Assembly (NCBI RefSeq): GCF_058153355.1
Contig: NZ_CM177019.1
Length of the DNA: 64,000 bases
Direction: 5' to 3' (one strand)
Shown: positions 4,408 through 35,997 of the stretch, piece by piece
Layout of the letters: every line of letters starts with the position of its first letter
Position numbering within the stretch: position 1 is the stretch's first letter
Made by a program: the position numbers and the translations under genes
The notes under the pieces: model-generated
What the model was told of the DNA's origin: nothing
What the model saw: the letters and a program-made list of their open reading frames with translations, nothing else
The model's database searches: none

Positions 4408-4512
4408 TCCATGCCATATGCGGCGCGAACGCCTTATACGGCCTACAAAAGTTTGCAAATTCAATAAATTGCAGAATTCATGTAGGCCTGATAAGCGAAG
4501 CGCATCAGGCAT
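4408..4512. repeat. REP/BIME-type extragenic palindromes
   Basis: Motifs such as gcggcgcgaacgccttatacggcctac and gtaggcctgataagcgaagcgcatcaggc match the E. coli REP consensus. Confidence 0.75.
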
Positions 4513-9486: not shown

Positions 9487-9577
<91 letters not shown>

Positions 9578-19589: not shown

Positions 19590-19629
19590 TGAGTTGCGGT
19601 GCCGGAAAATATCCAGCACCGCGCCTTCA

Positions 19630-21024
19630 TCAGAAGAAGTATTTAAAGCGAACGCGTGCGCCGTAACGGTCATCAGTATCATCACCGTGTTTTTTATCAC
19701 CGTCGCTATCCAGAATGGAGTAATAAGTACCAAGGTAAATATTAAAGTTCTCCATATCCATCACATTAGCGAACTGATAAGACGCATGAATGGTGTGAAT
19801 GGTGTACGTCCCTTCATCATCAATCCAGCAGTCGTTATCACAAACTACACCGCTGAATTCATCAATCTTATTGTGCGCGTAGATATAACCCAGCTCGAAA
19901 CGTTTCCACAGCGCGTTAATCCCGGCAGTGAAATCTTTTTCATTATTAGCATCTAAATAGGCGGTATTAAGATTAACCACGACGCCATTTTCCGGATCCG
20001 TTTTCAGGCCATTCCAGGTCATGCTCATACCATAGCCGGTACGATCGGACTGATCGACAAAATTACCCTTGCTATCGGTATAACCATAAGCATTATTTAC
20101 TACGTTCGCTTCCATCGCTGCGGAAACGGTGAATTCTTCCGTCGGCGACCAGGCAATTACCGGACGCAGATAAGCAACATTTTTCTGCTGCTTCATATCG
20201 CGTCCATGATAATTACCGTCATTATATAAAGATGTTCCGTCTTCAAGTAACGTGTTTAATTCAAAATACCAGTTATCGAGTTGTTTGCTGACGAGGAAAT
20301 TACCGCCAGCGTTAGAGCGCCCGCGGCCCTCTTTCATCATATAGATATAACCGCTGCCATCGTCATAAAGATCGTTCGCAGTATTACCGGAATGTTCAAC
20401 AAAGGTATCCTGATTCAGCGGGAACATATCGTAGGCTTCAAAACGGCCTACTTTGACCTTCCAGTCGTTTTCTTTGCCAAAGAAGAATACCGCATCATCG
20501 ATATTTACTGAACCGTGCATATCCCCCAGCGGTTGTGCGGAGAACCCGGCGAAATAACCATTATCCAGTTTTCGCATACCATCAAAACCTAACAGAATAC
20601 GACCATTGAGATTCCACTGTTCATTAGTGGGATCGCTATTCACATCAGCGTTGGTCATTGCCAGCAGGCCATGATTACTTTCCGCATCCATATTAAATTC
20701 TACGTCGCCGTAGATTTTTAAATCGCCATAACCTGAAAGCAAAAGATTAGGTGAGGTGGCATTTTTCTTTGCAGATTCCGCCGTTGTCTGTCCATTTACC
20801 GGCGTATTGCCCTGGGCAGCCTTAATTTCGCGGATCTCAGCGGCTTGTTGTGTCTGCAGCTGTTTTACCTGCCCCTCTGCTTTTGCTGCCCGCATTTCTG
20901 CCGCTTCCAGGCGTTCTTCCAGCAATGCCATGCGTTGTTCCAGCGTTAAATGCTGTGTTTTTGCCATTCCGGTACTACATGCCAATAATAAACCGATGGC
21001 TAAAGATAATGTCGATTTTTTCAT
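19630..21024 (-). CDS. outer-membrane carbohydrate-porin-like protein with N-terminal coiled-coil extension (ScrY/BglH-like architecture)
   Basis: 464 aa; signal peptide MKKSTLSLAIGLLLACSTGMA, then a heptad-like region (LEQRMALLEERLEAAEMRAAKAEGQVKQLQTQQAAEIREIKAAQ), then an aromatic-rich barrel-like region ending in C-terminal Phe (..RFKYFF). Confidence 0.7.
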   Translation of the reverse strand: MKKSTLSLAIGLLLACSTGMAKTQHLTLEQRMALLEERLEAAEMRAAKAEGQVKQLQTQQAAEIREIKAAQGNTPVNGQTTAESAKKNATSPNLLLSGYGDLKIYGDVEFNMDAESNHGLLAMTNADVNSDPTNEQWNLNGRILLGFDGMRKLDNGYFAGFSAQPLGDMHGSVNIDDAVFFFGKENDWKVKVGRFEAYDMFPLNQDTFVEHSGNTANDLYDDGSGYIYMMKEGRGRSNAGGNFLVSKQLDNWYFELNTLLEDGTSLYNDGNYHGRDMKQQKNVAYLRPVIAWSPTEEFTVSAAMEANVVNNAYGYTDSKGNFVDQSDRTGYGMSMTWNGLKTDPENGVVVNLNTAYLDANNEKDFTAGINALWKRFELGYIYAHNKIDEFSGVVCDNDCWIDDEGTYTIHTIHASYQFANVMDMENFNIYLGTYYSILDSDGDKKHGDDTDDRYGARVRFKYFF

Positions 21025-21500
21025 TATTTACGTTCCCTGAAATAAAAGATACCCTACGCTTTCCAAAAGGAATACGTATATAGAGAAATATAAGGTGTGC
21101 ACTTTCGAATTTTTAATCCAACTTCAGCAGGCCGATGGATAGTATCCCGCTGCATAATATGAGTAAATCCGCTGATTTCCTGGAACGTGAGGAATATAAC
21201 AATAGTGCCGTTTTTAACTAAATATCGTAAAAAATATTAGATATAATTCACGCTGACTCATAAGCCACAAATATAAATAACCTTGCTGCAAAATATGTGC
21301 GGCAGTTAAACATTCACAACATCATTAAATAATGATTTTTTATTCACTGCATTTATTTTTCCCATCAATATGTGCCTTACACCGCAAAATTTATCCTTCA
21401 CTCTGCCTTATATTGTCACGACTTCACGACATATCCGCGCTCATCACAAAACCGCCCCGCCGTTACAATTAACTATAATATTTTTTCATGGAGTCCAATA

Positions 21501-25782: not shown

Positions 25783-25794
25783 CAGCAACCGGAG
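25783..25794. repeat. IS4 target-site duplication, left copy (CAGCAACCGGAG)
   Basis: 12-bp direct repeat flanking the element; identical copy at 27221..27232. Confidence 0.85.
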
Positions 25795-27220
25795 TAATGC
25801 CGATCAGTTAAGGATCAGTTGACCGATCCAGTGGCTGTGTAAGAATCCGGAAACGCTCACTTGTTTCCGGATTTTTTTATGCACATTGGACAGGCTCTTG
25901 ATCTGGTATCCCGTTACGATTCTCTGCGTAACCCACTGACTTCTCTGGGGGATTACCTCGACCCCGAACTCATCTCTCGTTGCCTTGCCGAATCAGGTAC
26001 TGTAACGCTACGCAAGCGCCGTCTTCCCCTCGAAATGATGGTCTGGTGTATTGTTGGCATGGCGCTTGAGCGTAAAGAACCTCTTCACCAGATTGTGAAT
26101 CGCCTGGACATCATGCTGCCGGGCAATCGCCCCTTCGTTGCCCCCAGTGCCGTTATTCAGGCCCGCCAGCGCCTGGGAAGTGAGGCTGTCCGCCGCGTGT
26201 TCACGAAAACAGCGCAGCTCTGGCATAACGCCACGCCGCATCCGCACTGGTGCGGCCTGACCCTGCTGGCCATCGATGGTGTGTTCTGGCGCACACCGGA
26301 TACACCAGAGAACGATGCAGCCTTCCCCCGCCAGACACATGCCGGGAACCCGGCGCTCTACCCGCAGGTCAAAATGGTCTGCCAGATGGAACTGACCAGC
26401 CATCTGCTGACGGCTGCAGCCTTCGGCACGATGAAGAACAGCGAAAATGAGCTTGCTGAGCAACTTATAGAACAAACCGGCGATAACACTCTGACGTTAA
26501 TGGATAAAGGTTATTACTCACTGGGACTGTTAAATGCCTGGAGCCTGGCGGGAGAACACCGCCACTGGATGATACCTCTCAGAAAGGGAGCGCAATATGA
26601 AGAGATCAGAAAACTGGGTAAAGGCGATCATCTGGTGAAGCTGAAAACCAGCCCGCAGGCACGAAAAAAGTGGCCGGGACTGGGAAATGAAGTGACAGCC
26701 CGCCTGCTGACCGTGACGCGCAAAGGAAAAGTCTGCCATCTGCTGACGTCGATGACGGACGCCATGCGCTTCCCCGGAGGAGAAATGGCGGATCTGTACA
26801 GTCATCGCTGGGAAATCGAACTGGGATACAGGGAGATAAAACAGACGATGCAACTGAGCAGGCTGACGCTGAGAAGTAAAAAGCCGGAGCTTGTGGAGCA
26901 AGAGCTGTGGGGTGTCTTACTGGCTTATAATCTGGTGAGATATCAGATGATTAAAATGGCGGAACATCTGAAAGGTTACTGGCCGAATCAACTGAGTTTC
27001 TCAGAATCATGCGGAATGGTGATGAGAATGCTGATGACATTGCAGGGCGCTTCACCGGGACGTATACCGGAGCTGATGCGCGATCTTGCAAGTATGGGAC
27101 AACTTGTGAAATTACCGACAAGAAGGGAAAGGGCCTTCCCGAGAGTGGTAAAGGAGAGGCCCTGGAAATACCCCACAGCCCCGAAAAAGAGCCAGTCAGT
27201 TGCTTAACTGACTGGCATTA
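25795..27220 (+). mobile_element. IS4 insertion sequence, complete (1426 bp)
   Basis: Imperfect 18-bp terminal inverted repeats (taatgccgatcagttaag / cttaactgactggcatta), one transposase ORF, length exactly 1426 bp, flanked by a 12-bp duplication. Confidence 0.93.
25879..27207 (+). CDS. insG: IS4 transposase (DDE)
   Basis: 442 aa from [27 protein letters not shown]...; recognised as the IS4 transposase. Confidence 0.92.
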
Positions 27221-27232
27221 CAGCAACCGGAG
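27221..27232. repeat. IS4 target-site duplication, right copy (CAGCAACCGGAG)
   Basis: Identical to 25783..25794. Confidence 0.85.
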
Positions 27233-28918: not shown

Positions 28919-29752
28919 TTAATTACTCAAACGCTGCGGATGGGTATAAACCGTTGCCCGACCCGGCTTACAAAAGCCCACCAGCGTCAAATTACAGCGC
29001 TCAGCCACTTCTACGGCAAGCGTGGTCGCGGCAGACACCGCAAACAAAATTTCTACGCCGCACATCGCTGACTTTTGCACCATTTCATAACTGGCACGAC
29101 TGGAAACCAGCACCGCACCTTGCTGCCAGCTTTCCCCTTCTTGTGACCGGCGGCCTAACAGTTTATCCAGCGCCACATGGCGACCCACGTCTTCATGCCC
29201 GCCTACCAGTTCGCCAGATGGCAACATCCAGGCAGCGGCGTGAGTACAACCAGTCAGTTGCCCCACTGGCTGGAAATCATTGAGATGGCGTAATGCATCA
29301 TCCAGTTTGTTGAGATCAAATGTCTGAGTGAACGGCAGCGGCTGCACCGGTTTACCGATGTCATTAAGTTGCTCCACGCCGCACACGCCACATCCCGTAC
29401 GTCCCGCCAGTGCCCGACGACGCTCCTTCAACCCCATAAAGCGGCGGCTGGAAAGCTCAATTTGCACTTCCAGACCATTACAGGAAGGAACGACATCCAT
29501 ACCGAAGATATCGCGCGGACTTTCGATAATCCCCTCGGAAAGCGAAAAACCGAGCGCAAAGTATTCAAGGTCTTTGGGCGACGCCATCATCACCACATGC
29601 GAAATGCCGTTGTAGACCAGCGCAACGGGAACCTCTTCCGCCACCTCATCTAACCGTGGGTGTTGTAAATCGTCACGCCGCCATAACTCAATTTGACGAA
29701 CACCTGTGACATTTATCACATTTTTGATTTCTTTTTGCTGTGTTTTTTTCAC
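28919..29752 (-). CDS. fdhD: formate dehydrogenase sulfurtransferase/maturation protein
   Basis: 277 aa; divergent from fdoG. Confidence 0.92.
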
Positions 29753-29945
29753 TTTCTATTAACCGGATAAGAACACACACACCAACATTATGGTATTCTG
29801 TTACAAACCCTTCCTGGATGGAGGGAAATTGAGCCAATTCTGGACCTTTGCGGCCCCTTCCGCAAAGAAAAATAACTCCCACTCCCTGCACACGCAGCAA
29901 GCGAATGTAAATGGGACGTGACAATGTCGAAACAAGGAGCAATCC

Positions 29946-32900
29946 ATGCAGGTCAGCAGAAGGCAGTTCTTTAAGATCTGCGCTGGCGGTATGGCAGGCA
30001 CCACGGCAGCGGCACTGGGTTTTGCACCCAGCGTAGCACTCGCGGAAACCCGGCAGTATAAACTGCTGCGCACCCGCGAAACCCGTAATACCTGCACCTA
30101 TTGTTCCGTAGGCTGTGGGCTGTTGATGTACAGCCTCGGTGACGGAGCAAAAAACGCCAAAGCATCTATCTTCCATATCGAAGGTGACCCGGATCACCCG
30201 GTCAACCGCGGTGCACTTTGTCCCAAAGGCGCTGGCCTGGTGGATTTCATCCACTCCGAAAGCCGTCTGAAGTTTCCGGAATACCGTGCCCCTGGTTCTG
30301 ATAAATGGCAGCAAATCAGTTGGGAAGAGGCGTTTGATCGCATTGCCAAACTGATGAAAGAAGACCGCGATGCTAACTACATTGCGCAAAACGCCGAAGG
30401 CGTGACTGTTAACCGCTGGCTCTCCACCGGGATGCTGTGTGCTTCCGCGTCGAGTAACGAAACCGGCTATTTAACGCAAAAATTCTCCCGCGCGCTGGGT
30501 ATGCTCGCGGTCGACAACCAGGCGCGTGTCTGACACGGACCAACGGTAGCAAGTCTTGCTCCAACATTTGGTCGCGGTGCGATGACCAACCACTGGGTCG
30601 ACATCAAGAACGCCAACCTCGTCGTGGTGATGGGCGGTAACGCCGCTGAAGCTCACCCGGTCGGGTTCCGCTGGGCGATGGAAGCCAAAATTCACAACGG
30701 CGCGAAGCTGATTGTGATCGATCCTCGCTTTACGCGTACGGCGGCGGTGGCTGACTACTATGCCCCTATTCGTTCCGGTACTGACATTGCTTTCCTGTCA
30801 GGCGTATTGCTGTACCTGCTGAACAATGAAAAATTCAACCGCGAATACACCGAAGCCTATACCAACGCCAGCCTGATCGTGCGTGAGGATTACGGCTTTG
30901 AAGATGGCCTGTTCACCGGCTACGACGCGGAAAAACGCAAGTACGATAAATCCTCCTGGACCTACGAGCTGGACGAAAACGGCTTCGCCAAACGCGATAC
31001 CACGCTGCAACATCCGCGCTGCGTGTGGAACTTGCTGAAACAGCACGTTTCCCGTTATACGCCAGATGTGGTTGAAAACATCTGTGGCACGCCGAAAGAC
31101 GCGTTCCTGAAAGTCTGCGAATACATCGCAGAGACCAGTGCTCACGATAAAACTGCCTCGTTCCTTTACGCGCTCGGCTGGACGCAACACTCCGTTGGTG
31201 CGCAGAACATTCGTACGATGGCGATGATCCAGCTACTGCTCGGCAATATGGGGATGGCAGGCGGCGGCGTTAACGCCCTGCGCGGTCACTCCAACATTCA
31301 GGGGCTGACGGACCTGGGGCTGCTGTCGCAGAGCCTGCCAGGTTACATGACGCTGCCAAGCGAGAAGCAGACCGATCTGCAAACCTACCTTGCCGCCAAC
31401 ACGCCAAAACCACTGCTGGAAGGCCAGGTTAACTACTGGGGCAATTACCCGAAATTCTTCGTCTCCATGATGAAGGCCTTCTTTGGTGATAAAGCGACGG
31501 CAGAAAACAGCTGGGGCTTTGACTGGTTGCCGAAGTGGGATAAAGGCTACGACGTCCTGCAATACTTCGAGATGATGAAAGAGGGCAAGGTCAATGGCTA
31601 TATCTGCCAGGGCTTTAACCCTGTTGCCTCATTCCCGAACAAAAACAAAGTGATCGGTTGTCTGTCGAAACTGAAGTTCCTCGTCACTATCGACCCGCTG
31701 AACACTGAAACCTCTAACTTCTGGCAGAACCACGGTGAGCTGAACGAAGTGGACTCGTCGAAGATCCAGACCGAAGTGTTCCGTCTGCCATCGACCTGCT
31801 TCGCGGAAGAGAACGGTTCAATCGTTAACTCCGGTCGCTGGTTGCAGTGGCACTGGAAAGGTGCGGACGCCCCAGGGATTGCGCTGACTGATGGCGAGAT
31901 CCTCTCCGGTATCTTCCTGCGCTTGCGCAAGATGTACGCCGAACAGGGTGGCGCGAACCCGGACCAGGTGCTGAACATGACCTGGAACTACGCCATCCCG
32001 CATGAGCCGAAGTCGGAAGAAGTGGCGATGGAGAGCAACGGTAAGGCGCTGGCCGATATTACCGATCCGGCAACCGGGGCGGTTATCGTCAAGAAAGGCC
32101 AACAACTTAGCTCGTTCGCCCAACTGCGCGATGACGGTACCACCTCCTGTGGCTGCTGGATTTTCGCCGGTAGCTGGACGCCAGAGGGCAACCAGATGGC
32201 ACGCCGTGATAACGCCGATCCGTCTGGCCTCGGTAACACGCTGGGCTGGGCATGGGCATGGCCGCTTAACCGCCGCATTCTGTATAACCGCGCCTCCGCA
32301 GATCCGCAGGGTAACCCGTGGGATCCGAAGCGTCAGTTGCTGAAATGGGACGGCACTAAGTGGACCGGCTGGGATATTCCGGACTACAGCGCAGCGCCTC
32401 CGGGCAGTGGCGTCGGGCCGTTTATCATGCAGCAGGAAGGCATGGGGCGTCTGTTTGCTCTCGATAAGATGGCGGAAGGTCCGTTCCCGGAACACTACGA
32501 GCCGTTTGAAACGCCGCTGGGAACTAACCCACTGCATCCAAACGTTATCTCGAACCCGGCTGCGCGAATCTTTAAAGACGATGCCGAAGCATTGGGTAAA
32601 GCCGATAAGTTCCCGTATGTCGGAACCACCTATCGTCTGACCGAGCACTTCCACTACTGGACCAAACACGCGCTGTTGAATGCGATTTTGCAGCCAGAGC
32701 AGTTTGTGGAAATCGGGGAGTCGCTGGCGAATAAACTTGGCATTGCTCAGGGCGATACCGTGAAAGTCTCCTCCAACCGTGGCTATATCAAAGCCAAAGC
32801 GGTGGTGACCAAACGTATTCGTACGCTAAAAGCGAACGGCAAAGATATCGATACCATCGGTATTCCGATTCACTGGGGCTATGAAGGTGTTGCGAAAAAA

Positions 32901-32996
32901 GGCTTTATTGCCAATACGTTAACGCCATTCGTTGGTGATGCGAACACGCAGACGCCGGAGTTTAAGTCCTTCCTTGTGAATGTGGAAAAGGTGTAA
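29946..32996 (+). CDS. fdoG: formate dehydrogenase-O catalytic subunit (selenoprotein; in-frame UGA at 30531..30533 read as selenocysteine)
   Basis: Tat signal (RRQFFKICAGGMAGTTAAALGFA); the 195-codon ORF ends at TGA and the same frame continues as the 804-aa ORF at 30582, because (30582-29946) is divisible by 3. Molybdopterin oxidoreductase motifs throughout. Confidence 0.93.
30534..30580 (+). promoter_or_regulatory. probable SECIS stem-loop directing Sec insertion at the fdoG UGA
   Basis: Hairpin-capable sequence (..ggtagcaagtcttgctcc..) directly 3' of the UGA. Fold not computed. Confidence 0.5.
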
Positions 32997-33008
32997 CGGA
33001 GACGACAT

Positions 33009-33911
33009 ATGGCTTATCAATCTCAAGATATCATTCGTCGTTCCGCGACTAACGGTCTGACCCCCGCGCCTCAGGCGCGGGACTTCCAGGAAGAAGTGGC
33101 GAAACTCATCGACGTCACCACCTGTATCGGCTGTAAAGCCTGTCAGGTGGCGTGTTCAGAGTGGAACGACATTCGCGATACCGTCGGCAATAACATTGGG
33201 GTGTACGACAACCCCAATGATTTAAGCGCCAAATCGTGGACAGTGATGCGCTTCTCGGAAGTGGAGCAGAACGACAAACTGGAATGGCTAATCCGTAAAG
33301 ACGGCTGTATGCACTGTTCCGATCCAGGCTGCCTGAAAGCGTGTCCGGCGGAAGGGGCAATTATTCAGTATGCCAACGGTATCGTCGACTTCCAGTCCGA
33401 GCAGTGCATTGGTTGCGGTTATTGCATTGCGGGCTGTCCGTTCGACATTCCGCGCCTCAACCCGGAAGACAACCGCGTTTATAAATGTACGCTGTGCGTT
33501 GACCGCGTGGTGGTTGGGCAAGAACCGGCCTGCGTGAAGACCTGCCCAACGGGCGCGATTCACTTCGGTACGAAAGAGTCGATGAAAACGCTGGCGAGCG
33601 AGCGCGTGGCGGAGCTGAAAACTCGCGGTTACGACAATGCGGGTCTGTACGATCCGGCAGGCGTGGGTGGTACACACGTTATGTACGTGCTGCACCATGC
33701 TGACAAGCCAAATCTGTATCATGGCTTGCCGGAGAACCCGGAAATCAGCGAAACCGTGAAATTCTGGAAAGGCATCTGGAAACCGCTCGCAGCTGTTGGC
33801 TTTGCGGCTACCTTCGCAGCCAGTATCTTCCACTACGTGGGTGTCGGTCCGAACCGTGCGGATGAGGAAGAGAATAATCTGCACGAAGAGAAAGACGAGG
33901 AGCGCAAATGA
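33009..33911 (+). CDS. fdoH: formate dehydrogenase-O iron-sulfur subunit
   Basis: 300 aa; four Cys-cluster ferredoxin motifs and a C-terminal TM anchor. Confidence 0.95.
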
Positions 33912-34543
33912 AACGACGTGACACCATCGTGCGCTACACCGCGCCGGAACGTATCAACCACTGGATCACCGCCTTCTGCTTCATCCTGGCGGCGGTGAGC
34001 GGGCTGGGCTTTTTGTTCCCTTCCTTTAACTGGTTGATGCAAATCATGGGCACACCGCAGCTGGCGCGCATTCTGCACCCGTTTGTCGGCGTGGTTATGT
34101 TTGCCTCGTTCATCATCATGTTTTTCCGTTACTGGCATCACAACCTAATCAATCGGGATGATATCTTTTGGGCGAAGAATATTCGTAAGATCGTCGTCAA
34201 CGAGGAAGTAGGTGACACCGGGCGTTATAACTTCGGTCAGAAATGCGTTTTCTGGGCGGCGATTATTTTCCTGGTCCTGCTGTTGGTGAGCGGCGTGATT
34301 ATCTGGCGTCCTTATTTTGCGCCTGCTTTCTCAATCCCGGTGATCCGATTCGCGTTAATGCTGCATTCATTTGCCGCAGTGGCGTTAATTGTGGTTATCA
34401 TGGTGCATATCTACGCCGCCCTTTGGGTGAAAGGCACAATTACCGCCATGGTGGAAGGATGGGTTACCAGCGCCTGGGCGAAGAAACATCACCCGCGCTG
34501 GTACCGTGAGGTCCGCAAGACAACGGAAAAGAAAGCTGAATGA
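33908..34543 (+). CDS. fdoI: formate dehydrogenase-O cytochrome b556 subunit
   Basis: 211 aa, four TM helices; overlaps fdoH stop. Confidence 0.93.
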
Positions 34544-35469
34544 GTATTCGCATAATCCCGCAAGATGAGCTGGGTTCGAGCGAGAAACGTACGGCGGATA
34601 TGATTCCGCCGTTATTGTTCCCTCGGCTCAAGAATTTATACAACCGCCGCGCCGAACGTCTGCGCGAGCTGGCAGAAAATAATCCGCTGGGTGATTATCT
34701 GCGCTTTGCTGCGCTTATCGCCCACGCCCAGGAAGTGGTGCTGTACGACCATCCGCTGGAAATGGATCTGACTGCACGCATTAAAGAAGCCAGCGCACAG
34801 GGCAAGCCACCGCTGGATATTCACGTTTTGCCGCGTGATAAGCACTGGCAAAAGCTGCTGATGGCAATGATTGCTGAGCTGAAACCTGAAATGAGCGGCC
34901 CGGCGCTGGCAGTGATTGAGAATCTGGAGAAGGCATCAAGCCAGGAGCTGGAAGATATGGCCAGCGCGCTGTTCGCCTCTGATTTCTCGTCCGTCAGCAG
35001 CGATAAAGCGCCGTTTATCTGGGCTGCACTGTCACTCTACTGGGCGCAGATGGCCAATCTGATCCCGGGCAAAGCCCGCGCTGAATACGGCGAGCAACGT
35101 CAATATTGCCCGGTTTGTGGTTCTATGCCGGTGTCCAGTATGGTGCAAATTGGCACCACTCAGGGTCTGCGTTACCTGCACTGCAACCTGTGTGAAACTG
35201 AATGGCACGTAGTGCGCGTAAAATGCAGCAACTGTGAACAGAGCGGCAAACTGCATTACTGGTCGCTGGATGACGAACAGGCCGCGATTAAAGCCGAAAG
35301 CTGCGATGACTGTGGCACTTACCTGAAGATTCTTTATCAGGAAAAAGAACCGAAAGTTGAAGCCGTGGCAGATGACCTCGCCTCTCTGGTACTGGATGCG
35401 CGAATGGAGCAAGAAGGCTACGCCCGCAGTTCCATTAACCCGTTCCTGTTTCCGGGTGAAGGGGAGTAA
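34540..35469 (+). CDS. fdhE: formate dehydrogenase formation protein
   Basis: 309 aa; CxxC pairs ([30 protein letters not shown]). Confidence 0.93.
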
Positions 35470-35547
35470 TCTCTGACGTTTTCCGGGTGACGCTGGTCGC
35501 CCGGATTACAGTTGATAGGGTGTGACGACACCTGCTATTCCCGCAAA

Positions 35548-35593
35548 ATCTCTCGTATTTTGCGAGGCGTTTTCCAGATATGATGTAACAGTT
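35548..35593. repeat. copy A of a ~45-bp imperfect direct repeat (ttttgcgagGcgttttccaga...gttgcaAtt)
   Basis: About 80% identical to 35998..36043; the two copies flank the small RHH gene. Confidence 0.6.
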
Positions 35594-35683: not shown

Positions 35684-35902
35684 TCATTCCTTATGCTCCT
35701 TACACTGATCATCGACACCCACTGTCTCCCCCTTTTGCCTGCCTCCCTTTGCTTTACGCACAGGGAATTGCTGACGTTCCAGATATTGCTCTACCGCTTC
35801 GCGTAAAATTGCAGATCGTGAAACCTTACGCCAGCCCCTAAGCTTGTTCAGCCGTTTAATTGTCTCTTCTGATAAATGAAGAAAAACCGTATTCATCGTC
35901 AT
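35684..35902 (-). CDS. small ribbon-helix-helix (CopG-like) putative regulator of the YiiE/YiiF family
   Basis: 72 aa from ATG at 35902 (MTMNTVFLHLSEETIKRLNKLRGWRKVSRSAILREAVEQYLE...). Which K-12 paralog this is was not resolved. Confidence 0.7.
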   Translation of the reverse strand: MTMNTVFLHLSEETIKRLNKLRGWRKVSRSAILREAVEQYLERQQFPVRKAKGGRQKGETVGVDDQCKEHKE

Positions 35903-35997
35903 TGCCACCACCTAACATATATTACTCATTAATGTATGTGCGAAAATTACGCCGAAAAATCATTTAAAAAAAGCGGATTTTTGCATGCTGTTTTGTT

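Follow-up and report, generated by a model that had tools for sequence, protein, structure and literature searches.

The gene fdoG of Escherichia coli encodes the catalytic alpha subunit of formate dehydrogenase-O (FDH-O). In the 64,000-nucleotide stretch of DNA analysed here (the window; contig NZ_CM177019.1 of NCBI RefSeq assembly GCF_058153355.1), it occupies nt 29946–32996 of the plus strand and comprises 1016 codons and a stop codon. Its codon 196 is an in-frame UGA, and it is almost certain that this codon is decoded as selenocysteine (Sec) by means of a selenocysteine insertion sequence (SECIS) hairpin located 3′ of it. Comparison of the sequences demonstrates the identity of the gene, the placement of the UGA at the Sec position, the match of the hairpin to the SECIS model and the selection acting on the hairpin at the RNA level. 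The recoding site itself is already known; it has long been described, is curated in Rfam and is correctly annotated in RefSeq.

The fdoG frame starts with the ATG at nt 29946 and proceeds through 195 sense codons to the TGA at nt 30531–30533, which is codon 196. Another 820 sense codons follow before the TAA at nt 32994–32996. With the base composition of the window, 820 stop-free codons would occur by chance with a probability of about 1e-16. A preliminary description of this DNA had placed the TGA after 195 codons and the frame open behind it, and translation bears out these coordinates. Its count of 804 further codons, however, should read 820; 804 is the length of the mechanical open reading frame (ORF) starting from the ATG at nt 30582, the first ATG after the TGA. 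The six-frame list does contain two ORFs, as had been stated, at nt 29946–30533 and nt 30582–32996.

The gene is fdoG of E. coli and belongs to the fdo paralogue, not to fdn, which the comparisons settle. It differs from fdoG of K-12 (b3894, also 3051 nt) in 65 nucleotides, giving 97.9% DNA identity, and the two proteins differ in two residues only, K-12 T483 being replaced by A and K-12 S689 by K. Between nt 30400 and 30700 there are no differences from K-12 fdoG at all. The identity to K-12 fdnG is 74.9% for the DNA and 77% for the protein. FdoG scores 1573.8 bits against the NCBIfam model TIGR01553 (cut-off 814.2), covering residues 2–1015. The downstream gene fdoI (nt 33908–34543, plus strand) encodes the cytochrome b556 gamma subunit, whose score on the FdoI-type model NF007924 (453.3 bits) exceeds the cut-off of 341, whereas its score on the FdnI model NF007558 (243.6 bits) stays under the cut-off of 339. 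The assignment to fdo follows from these two models and from the unequal DNA identities to K-12 fdoG and fdnG. The locus is collinear with K-12 nt 4,080,299–4,086,849 at 97% identity, in the order fdhD-fdoGHI-fdhE. The earlier naming of the product as the FDH-O catalytic subunit is thus upheld by the near identity to K-12 FdoG, the synteny and the FdoI-type gamma subunit. K-12 harbors the same gene with the same TGA codon and the same neighbors fdhD, fdoH, fdoI and fdhE, and the difference between the two is strain-level polymorphism only. The fdoG stretch is found full length in 5425 of 5426 complete E. coli genomes.

The TGA falls on the Sec of the active site. The FdoG translation, with Cys in place of the stop at residue 196, was used as the query of a PDB search, and it aligned end to end with the FdnG chain 1kqf_A (1902 bits). 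Query residue 196 lies on X196 of this chain, the selenocysteine, in the context VDNQARV-U-HGPTVASLAPTFGRGAMTNHW, and H197 is conserved. The TGA therefore aligns with Sec196 of FdnG and not elsewhere, in agreement with the active-site position proposed for it beforehand. The next PDB matches after FdnG are Desulfovibrio formate dehydrogenases that contain selenocysteine. All four genes compared, namely those of the window and the closest genome and K-12 fdoG and fdnG, have TGA as codon 196.

Relatives were collected from 100,044 species genomes with the pattern D/E-N/H-Q-A-R-V/I-UGA-H, which is anchored upstream of the UGA. At least 121 loci carry the pattern, in Proteobacteria, Actinobacteria, Firmicutes, Chloroflexi and others. 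The frame continues after the TGA in all 121 loci listed, and the context of UGA followed by His is the same in every one of them, the His being part of the pattern. The peptides behind the UGA fall into distinct classes among the listed loci, for example HGPTVA(S/G)LAPTFGRGAMTN in Proteobacteria, HS(A/S)TVPGLGTSFGRGGAT in Actinobacteria, and HSATVAALAESFGRGAMTN in Desulfobacterota. The classes suggest that each post-UGA peptide co-evolves with a SECIS shape of its own; the analysis below concerns the HGP class.

All three formate dehydrogenases of E. coli have been described as selenocysteine enzymes (PMC6239281). The gene of tRNA-Sec, selC, is present in 5424 of the 5426 complete E. coli genomes, which serve here as a proxy for the source genome. 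A tRNA search of the 64-kb window found none, and the sel genes are located outside the window. Older work on FDH-O of E. coli reported a full-length FdoG of about 110 kDa that contains selenium.

The sequence around the UGA matches the covariance model of the Rfam family RF01989 (SECIS_3) at nt 30528–30586 of the plus strand. The match is full length (model positions 1–59 of 59), with 84.3 bits against a gathering score of 63 and an E value of 8.9e-20; in the whole window, only two further Rfam matches are above threshold. The UGA takes model positions 4–6, and the hairpin starts at nt 30534, directly 3′ of the UGA and inside the reading frame. Its apical stem-loop, GGU-AGCAA-GUC-UUGCU-CC (nt 30545–30562, plus strand), is the putative SelB-binding core, judging from the predicted folds, the register and the pairing. 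Numbering the U of the UGA as 1, the bulged U17 is nt 30547 and the loop residues G23 and U24 are nt 30553 and 30554; fdnG and fdhF display the same register, and the context GUCUGACACGG is common to all three genes. These are the residues that SelB contacts in a bacterial SECIS, whose upper stem-loop spans 17 nt and lies 11 nt from the UGA (PMC8659212). In 30 sequences, U17 and U24 are invariant and G23 nearly so; with the UGA numbered 4–6, the invariant positions are G18, G19, U20 and U27, and G26 is almost invariant. The score on SECIS_3 and the register of U17, G23 and U24 confirm that a stem-loop occupies the position of a bacterial SECIS, as the preliminary description had it.

The lower stem spans nt 30534–30576 of the plus strand, and its register is ambiguous. 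In the Rfam register nt 30534–30543 pair with nt 30568–30576, and the E. coli stem then contains two non-standard pairs, A8-C48 and A12-G44.

Two other SECIS elements of E. coli can be compared with that of fdoG. The K-12 fdnG element has the same sequence throughout, beginning 3 nt ahead of the UGA and ending 68 nt behind it, and its Rfam score is also 84.3 bits; outside the SECIS these paralogues share about 75% of their DNA sequence. FDH-N, the fdnG enzyme, is nitrate-inducible, while FDH-O is also made aerobically (PMC6239281). The fdhF element (Rfam RF01988, SECIS_2, a sister family of SECIS_3) has been dissected experimentally. It shares the context GUCUGACACGG, U17, G23/U24 and the GGU-stem-loop-stem-CC architecture with fdoG, but differs in the apical pairs, in the lower stem and in the loop, which is GGUC in fdhF versus a predicted GUC with an extra A-U pair in fdoG. 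The fdhF element scores 87.1 bits on SECIS_2 and 36 bits on SECIS_3, and the fdoG element 28 bits on SECIS_2. In fdhF the Sec is at codon 140 of a cytoplasmic enzyme of 715 residues.

Selection on the RNA is apparent from the nucleotides that the peptide leaves free to vary. The two longest runs that fdoG of the window and K-12 fdnG share without a mismatch measure 71 nt (nt 30528–30598) and 37 nt; the longer one contains the SECIS and extends 12 nt past the Rfam model. Codons 197–215 are identical in 19 of 19 cases between the two genes, compared with 57% of the codons for conserved amino acids elsewhere (nominal P 4e-5). Over the same tract (−3 to +68), Yersinia, Providencia, Photorhabdus and one Citrobacter paralogue match the window at 100% of positions, and so at every third position as well. 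The flanking 300 nt are 71–77% identical in Yersinia, Providencia and Photorhabdus, with third positions at 43–52%; when Citrobacter is included, the ranges are 71–92% and 43–80%.

Covariation was examined in 30 distinct HGP-type sequences from Proteobacteria. In this sample, pairing in the apical helix amounts to 97.1%, and three of its seven pairs have changed on both sides. None of 500 shuffles reached the observed percentage of pairing, the doubly changed cells or the covariation score. Doubly changed pairs and extra pair types, on the other hand, were no more numerous than in the shuffles. Controls in which the partners were slid by one to three columns were 29–50% paired. Pairs 21-33 and 24-30 join third codon positions, the former of Val with Ala/Gly codons and the latter of Ala/Ser with Leu codons. 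The changes in these two pairs are synonymous on both sides in most sequences, and peptide conservation cannot account for the third-position covariation. Taken from the aligned sequences, these data demonstrate that selection acts on the RNA structure of the hairpin, and make the fdoG locus a clean case of such selection on synonymous sites within a coding region.

No observation contradicts this interpretation, although it has its limits. The hairpin is not unusually stable: the UGA with the following 42 nt folds at −11.9 kcal/mol (z −1.2) and 50 nt fold at −14.6 kcal/mol (z −1.0), the z values range from −0.8 to −1.2 in all, and 21–25 of 200 dinucleotide shuffles fold as well. The validated SECIS of fdhF itself reaches a z of only −1.6. 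Since shuffled sequences fold nearly as well, stability alone cannot tell the hairpin from chance, and with 10–20% of shuffles equal to it we rejected thermodynamic stability as evidence for the hairpin. Of the stem-loop that had been claimed for the 45 nt after the UGA, the folding at that place stands, but a stability significantly above that of shuffles does not. The lower stem, in addition, is less well paired and shows weak covariation; the Rfam register (84.1% paired) and the ViennaRNA register (84.9%) have nearly equal support. There are no doubly changed pairs in the Rfam register and two in the ViennaRNA register, one of which is unpaired in 21 of the 30 sequences. The upper stem-loop has been reported as the essential part of a bacterial SECIS (PMC8659212), and the weaker lower helix agrees with such reports. 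Part of the identity between fdoG and fdnG, finally, could reflect gene conversion between the paralogues. The exact identity of the two within one genome runs 12 nt beyond the Rfam model, and the same pattern is seen in two Citrobacter werkmanii paralogues, as conversion would predict. That conversion is the main source of the 71-nt identity is nevertheless unlikely, because conversion within a genome cannot yield identity between genera or compensatory pairing: Yersinia, Providencia and Photorhabdus all have these 71 nt unchanged despite flanks of 71–77%, which argues for selection, and distant Proteobacteria keep the pairing by compensatory changes. Gene conversion may thus contribute to the identity of the paralogues but does not account for that between genera; it would in any case rival this single line of evidence and not the recoding.

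Two other explanations concern the recoding itself. If translation really ended at the TGA, one would be dealing with a pseudogene or with two genes having products of 195 and 804 residues, in accordance with the two ORFs of the mechanical list and with the deposition of both fragments as separate proteins in public collections. This is extremely improbable. The TGA stands at the same codon in K-12 fdoG and fdnG, and the frame is open behind it in the 121 listed loci from many phyla; the 16 codons from the TGA to the first ATG, which specify a portion of the active site (HGPTVASLAPTFGRGA), show perfect conservation; the SECIS lies at the required distance; and an open run of the length seen here is not expected by chance. 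The deposited fragments are explained by gene callers unaware of Sec. Alternatively, the UGA might be read through without SelB and Sec, for example by a near-cognate tRNA-Trp or tRNA-Cys, and the hairpin would then be a by-product of the conserved peptide. The unremarkable stability of the hairpin fits this explanation, as does the strong conservation of the peptide HGPTVASLAPTFGRGAMTN in its own right. Read-through of this kind is very improbable, however, as the synonymous sites are frozen across genera and covary in pairs at third positions, the element is above threshold on a structure-aware model, and tRNA-Sec is nearly universal in E. coli.

Decoding of the UGA as Sec would proceed as follows. 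The mRNA just 3′ of the UGA would fold into the SECIS hairpin, whose apical stem-loop, 11 nt after the UGA, would bind through U17 and G23/U24 the SelB protein carrying GTP and Sec-tRNA(Sec). With the UGA in the ribosomal A site, the tethered SelB would deliver selenocysteine while competing with release factor 2, after which the ribosome would run on through the remaining 820 codons. The binding of SelB and the selenium-dependent read-through of the fdoG element are expected from its sequence identity with the fdnG element. Sec196 would ligate the molybdenum of the bis-MGD cofactor. The insertion of selenium and this catalytic role, together with SelB binding, are here drawn from the established knowledge of the E. 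coli system. The twin-arginine translocation (Tat) leader, SRRQFFK, would export the folded enzyme, so that FdoGHI is expected to be periplasmic, and FdhD and FdhE would mature it (PMC6239281).

The identical tract of 71 nt is longer than the 17-nt stem-loop that binds SelB, and a constraint beyond SelB binding may be considered, although we regard it as distinctly unlikely. If it exists, the tract could keep both respiratory formate dehydrogenases matched in the competition for limiting SelB and Sec-tRNA. Alternatively, it could set a ribosome pause relevant to the Tat-coupled insertion of the cofactor.

Two features upstream of the Sec residue are shared with FdnG. Residues 1–33 (nt 29946–30044, plus strand) form the predicted Tat signal peptide; its motif S-R-R-Q-F-F-K (residues 4–10) is read from the translation, and the N-terminus aligns with that of FdnG. 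Cleavage of the signal presumably takes place after ALA33, as known for FdnG. The N-terminal [4Fe-4S] cysteine motif of FdoG, C50-x2-C53-x3-C57...C92, is kept in the alignment with FdnG. We take the functions of both the Tat and the [4Fe-4S] motifs to be those known for FdnG.

In the public records, fdoG appears both whole and in pieces. RefSeq, with its annotation pipeline PGAP, and the K-12 reference give one coding sequence (CDS) of 3051 nt, and so do 40 of 40 records sampled evenly down a ranking of 5433. The exact N-terminal fragment of 195 residues, however, occurs on 1000 contigs or more and belongs to a cluster of 3382 members; the exact fragment of 804 residues, which has GenBank accessions, occurs on 196 contigs and belongs to a cluster of 6687. 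The risk of a split or truncated annotation that had been pointed out is therefore real, since both fragments have been deposited verbatim even though RefSeq gives a single CDS. The practical value of the site is as a check on annotation, as gene callers unaware of Sec still split fdoG. Related N-terminal fragments occur in Cronobacter and Hafnia, and some of them are misnamed 'sulfate ABC transporter substrate-binding protein'. RefSeq/PGAP names the gene of the fdo locus 'fdnG: formate dehydrogenase-N subunit alpha'. This label arises because TIGR01553, the sole equivalog model, carries the name 'formate dehydrogenase-N subunit alpha'.

The other genes of the locus score above the cut-offs of their family models. 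The divergent gene fdhD (nt 28919–29752, minus strand) scores 340 bits on TIGR00129 (cut-off 140.9); FdhD is a sulfurtransferase that the three formate dehydrogenases of E. coli all need in order to mature (PMC6239281). Downstream of fdoG, fdoH (nt 33009–33911, plus strand) encodes the iron-sulfur beta subunit, with 478.7 bits on TIGR01582 (cut-off 334.7) and in agreement with RefSeq. Behind fdoI, fdhE (nt 34540–35469, plus strand) encodes an accessory protein scoring 603.3 bits on NF002925 (cut-off 426).

The region between fdhD and fdoG, including the 5′ leader of fdoG, covers nt 29753–29945 (plus strand), with a Shine-Dalgarno sequence AAGGAG at nt 29934–29939. The Rfam family RF02778, 'FdoG-1 5' UTR thermometer', matches nt 29777–29975 (plus strand) below threshold (32 bits; gathering score 50). 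This score accrues mainly over the Shine-Dalgarno sequence and the codons that open the gene; the fold of the leader is not distinctive (z −0.4). Because of the sub-threshold match and the undistinctive fold, no thermometer is claimed. A scan of the fdo operon for promoters and terminators gave fewer matches than shuffled sequences and was uninformative.

Compared with K-12, the accessory content around the operon differs while the operon itself does not. The window has an IS4 element in frvR, an extra porin gene and an extra gene for a protein of 604 residues, and it appears to have no yiiF.

The gene for the 604-residue protein is of more interest than the recoding site of fdoG, to which it is unrelated. 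An intact, unannotated ORF lies between yiiE and fabY at nt 36597–38510 (minus strand), and a product of 604 residues starting from M34 (nt 36600–38411) is probable. The ORF is largely absent from K-12, and the region occurs in 974 of 5426 E. coli genomes. One 98.6%-identical RefSeq record annotates it in two parts, a 'transposase' and a pseudogene, and all close homologues of the protein are named 'hypothetical protein'. The contig that carries one distant homologue is only 1.9 kb long. No match was found for the protein in Pfam, NCBIfam, PADLOC or the PDB sequences, and ten of its relatives scanned against Pfam gave no domain. An exhaustive HMMER search yielded 53 relatives. In an alignment with 17 distant relatives of 585–858 residues, L459, C499, D504, R505 and N575 are invariant and G498 and K500 nearly invariant, and GCKSAKDRT is the sole conserved block. 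In inositol polyphosphate 4-phosphatases, CKSAKDRT forms the catalytic C(X)5R motif (PMC3248162). An AlphaFold2 model of the protein (pLDDT 85, pTM 0.87) has as its best structural match the Salmonella effector phosphatase SopB (8jzl, E 3.5e-7), followed by the Legionella phosphoinositide phosphatases 4jza and 4fyf; the TM-scores are modest, 0.3–0.45. The motif and the predicted structure make the protein a candidate member of an uncharacterised family of phosphoinositide or inositol-phosphate phosphatases with SopB/INPP4-type likeness.

About 600 bp of K-12 including yiiF have no megablast counterpart at nt 35532–35558 of the window. The gene yiiE is present (ORF at nt 35684–35911, minus strand), and yiiF seems to be missing, just as in the genome with 98.6% identity. 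Between rhaM and frvA, nt 19590–21369 (about 1.8 kb) have no counterpart in the K-12 stretch compared. An ORF within it (nt 19630–21024, minus strand) encodes a RafY-type glycoporin of 464 residues, which scores 514 bits on the Pfam model Porin_8.

The IS4 element (nt 25795–27220, plus strand) is 1426 bp long and interrupts frvR relative to K-12. It contains an ORF of 448 residues with Nterm_IS4 and DDE_Tnp_1 domains, and its terminal inverted repeats measure about 19 nt. On either side of it, at nt 25783–25794 and nt 27221–27232, stands the target-site duplication CAGCAACCGGAG, a perfect repeat of 12 bp. The above-threshold Rfam matches outside fdoG are naRNA4/CssrE at nt 9494–9571 (plus strand, 87.4 bits) and ES036/CssrF at nt 4448–4489 (plus strand, 48.2 bits), both of which are presumably REP-derived repeat elements of E. 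coli.

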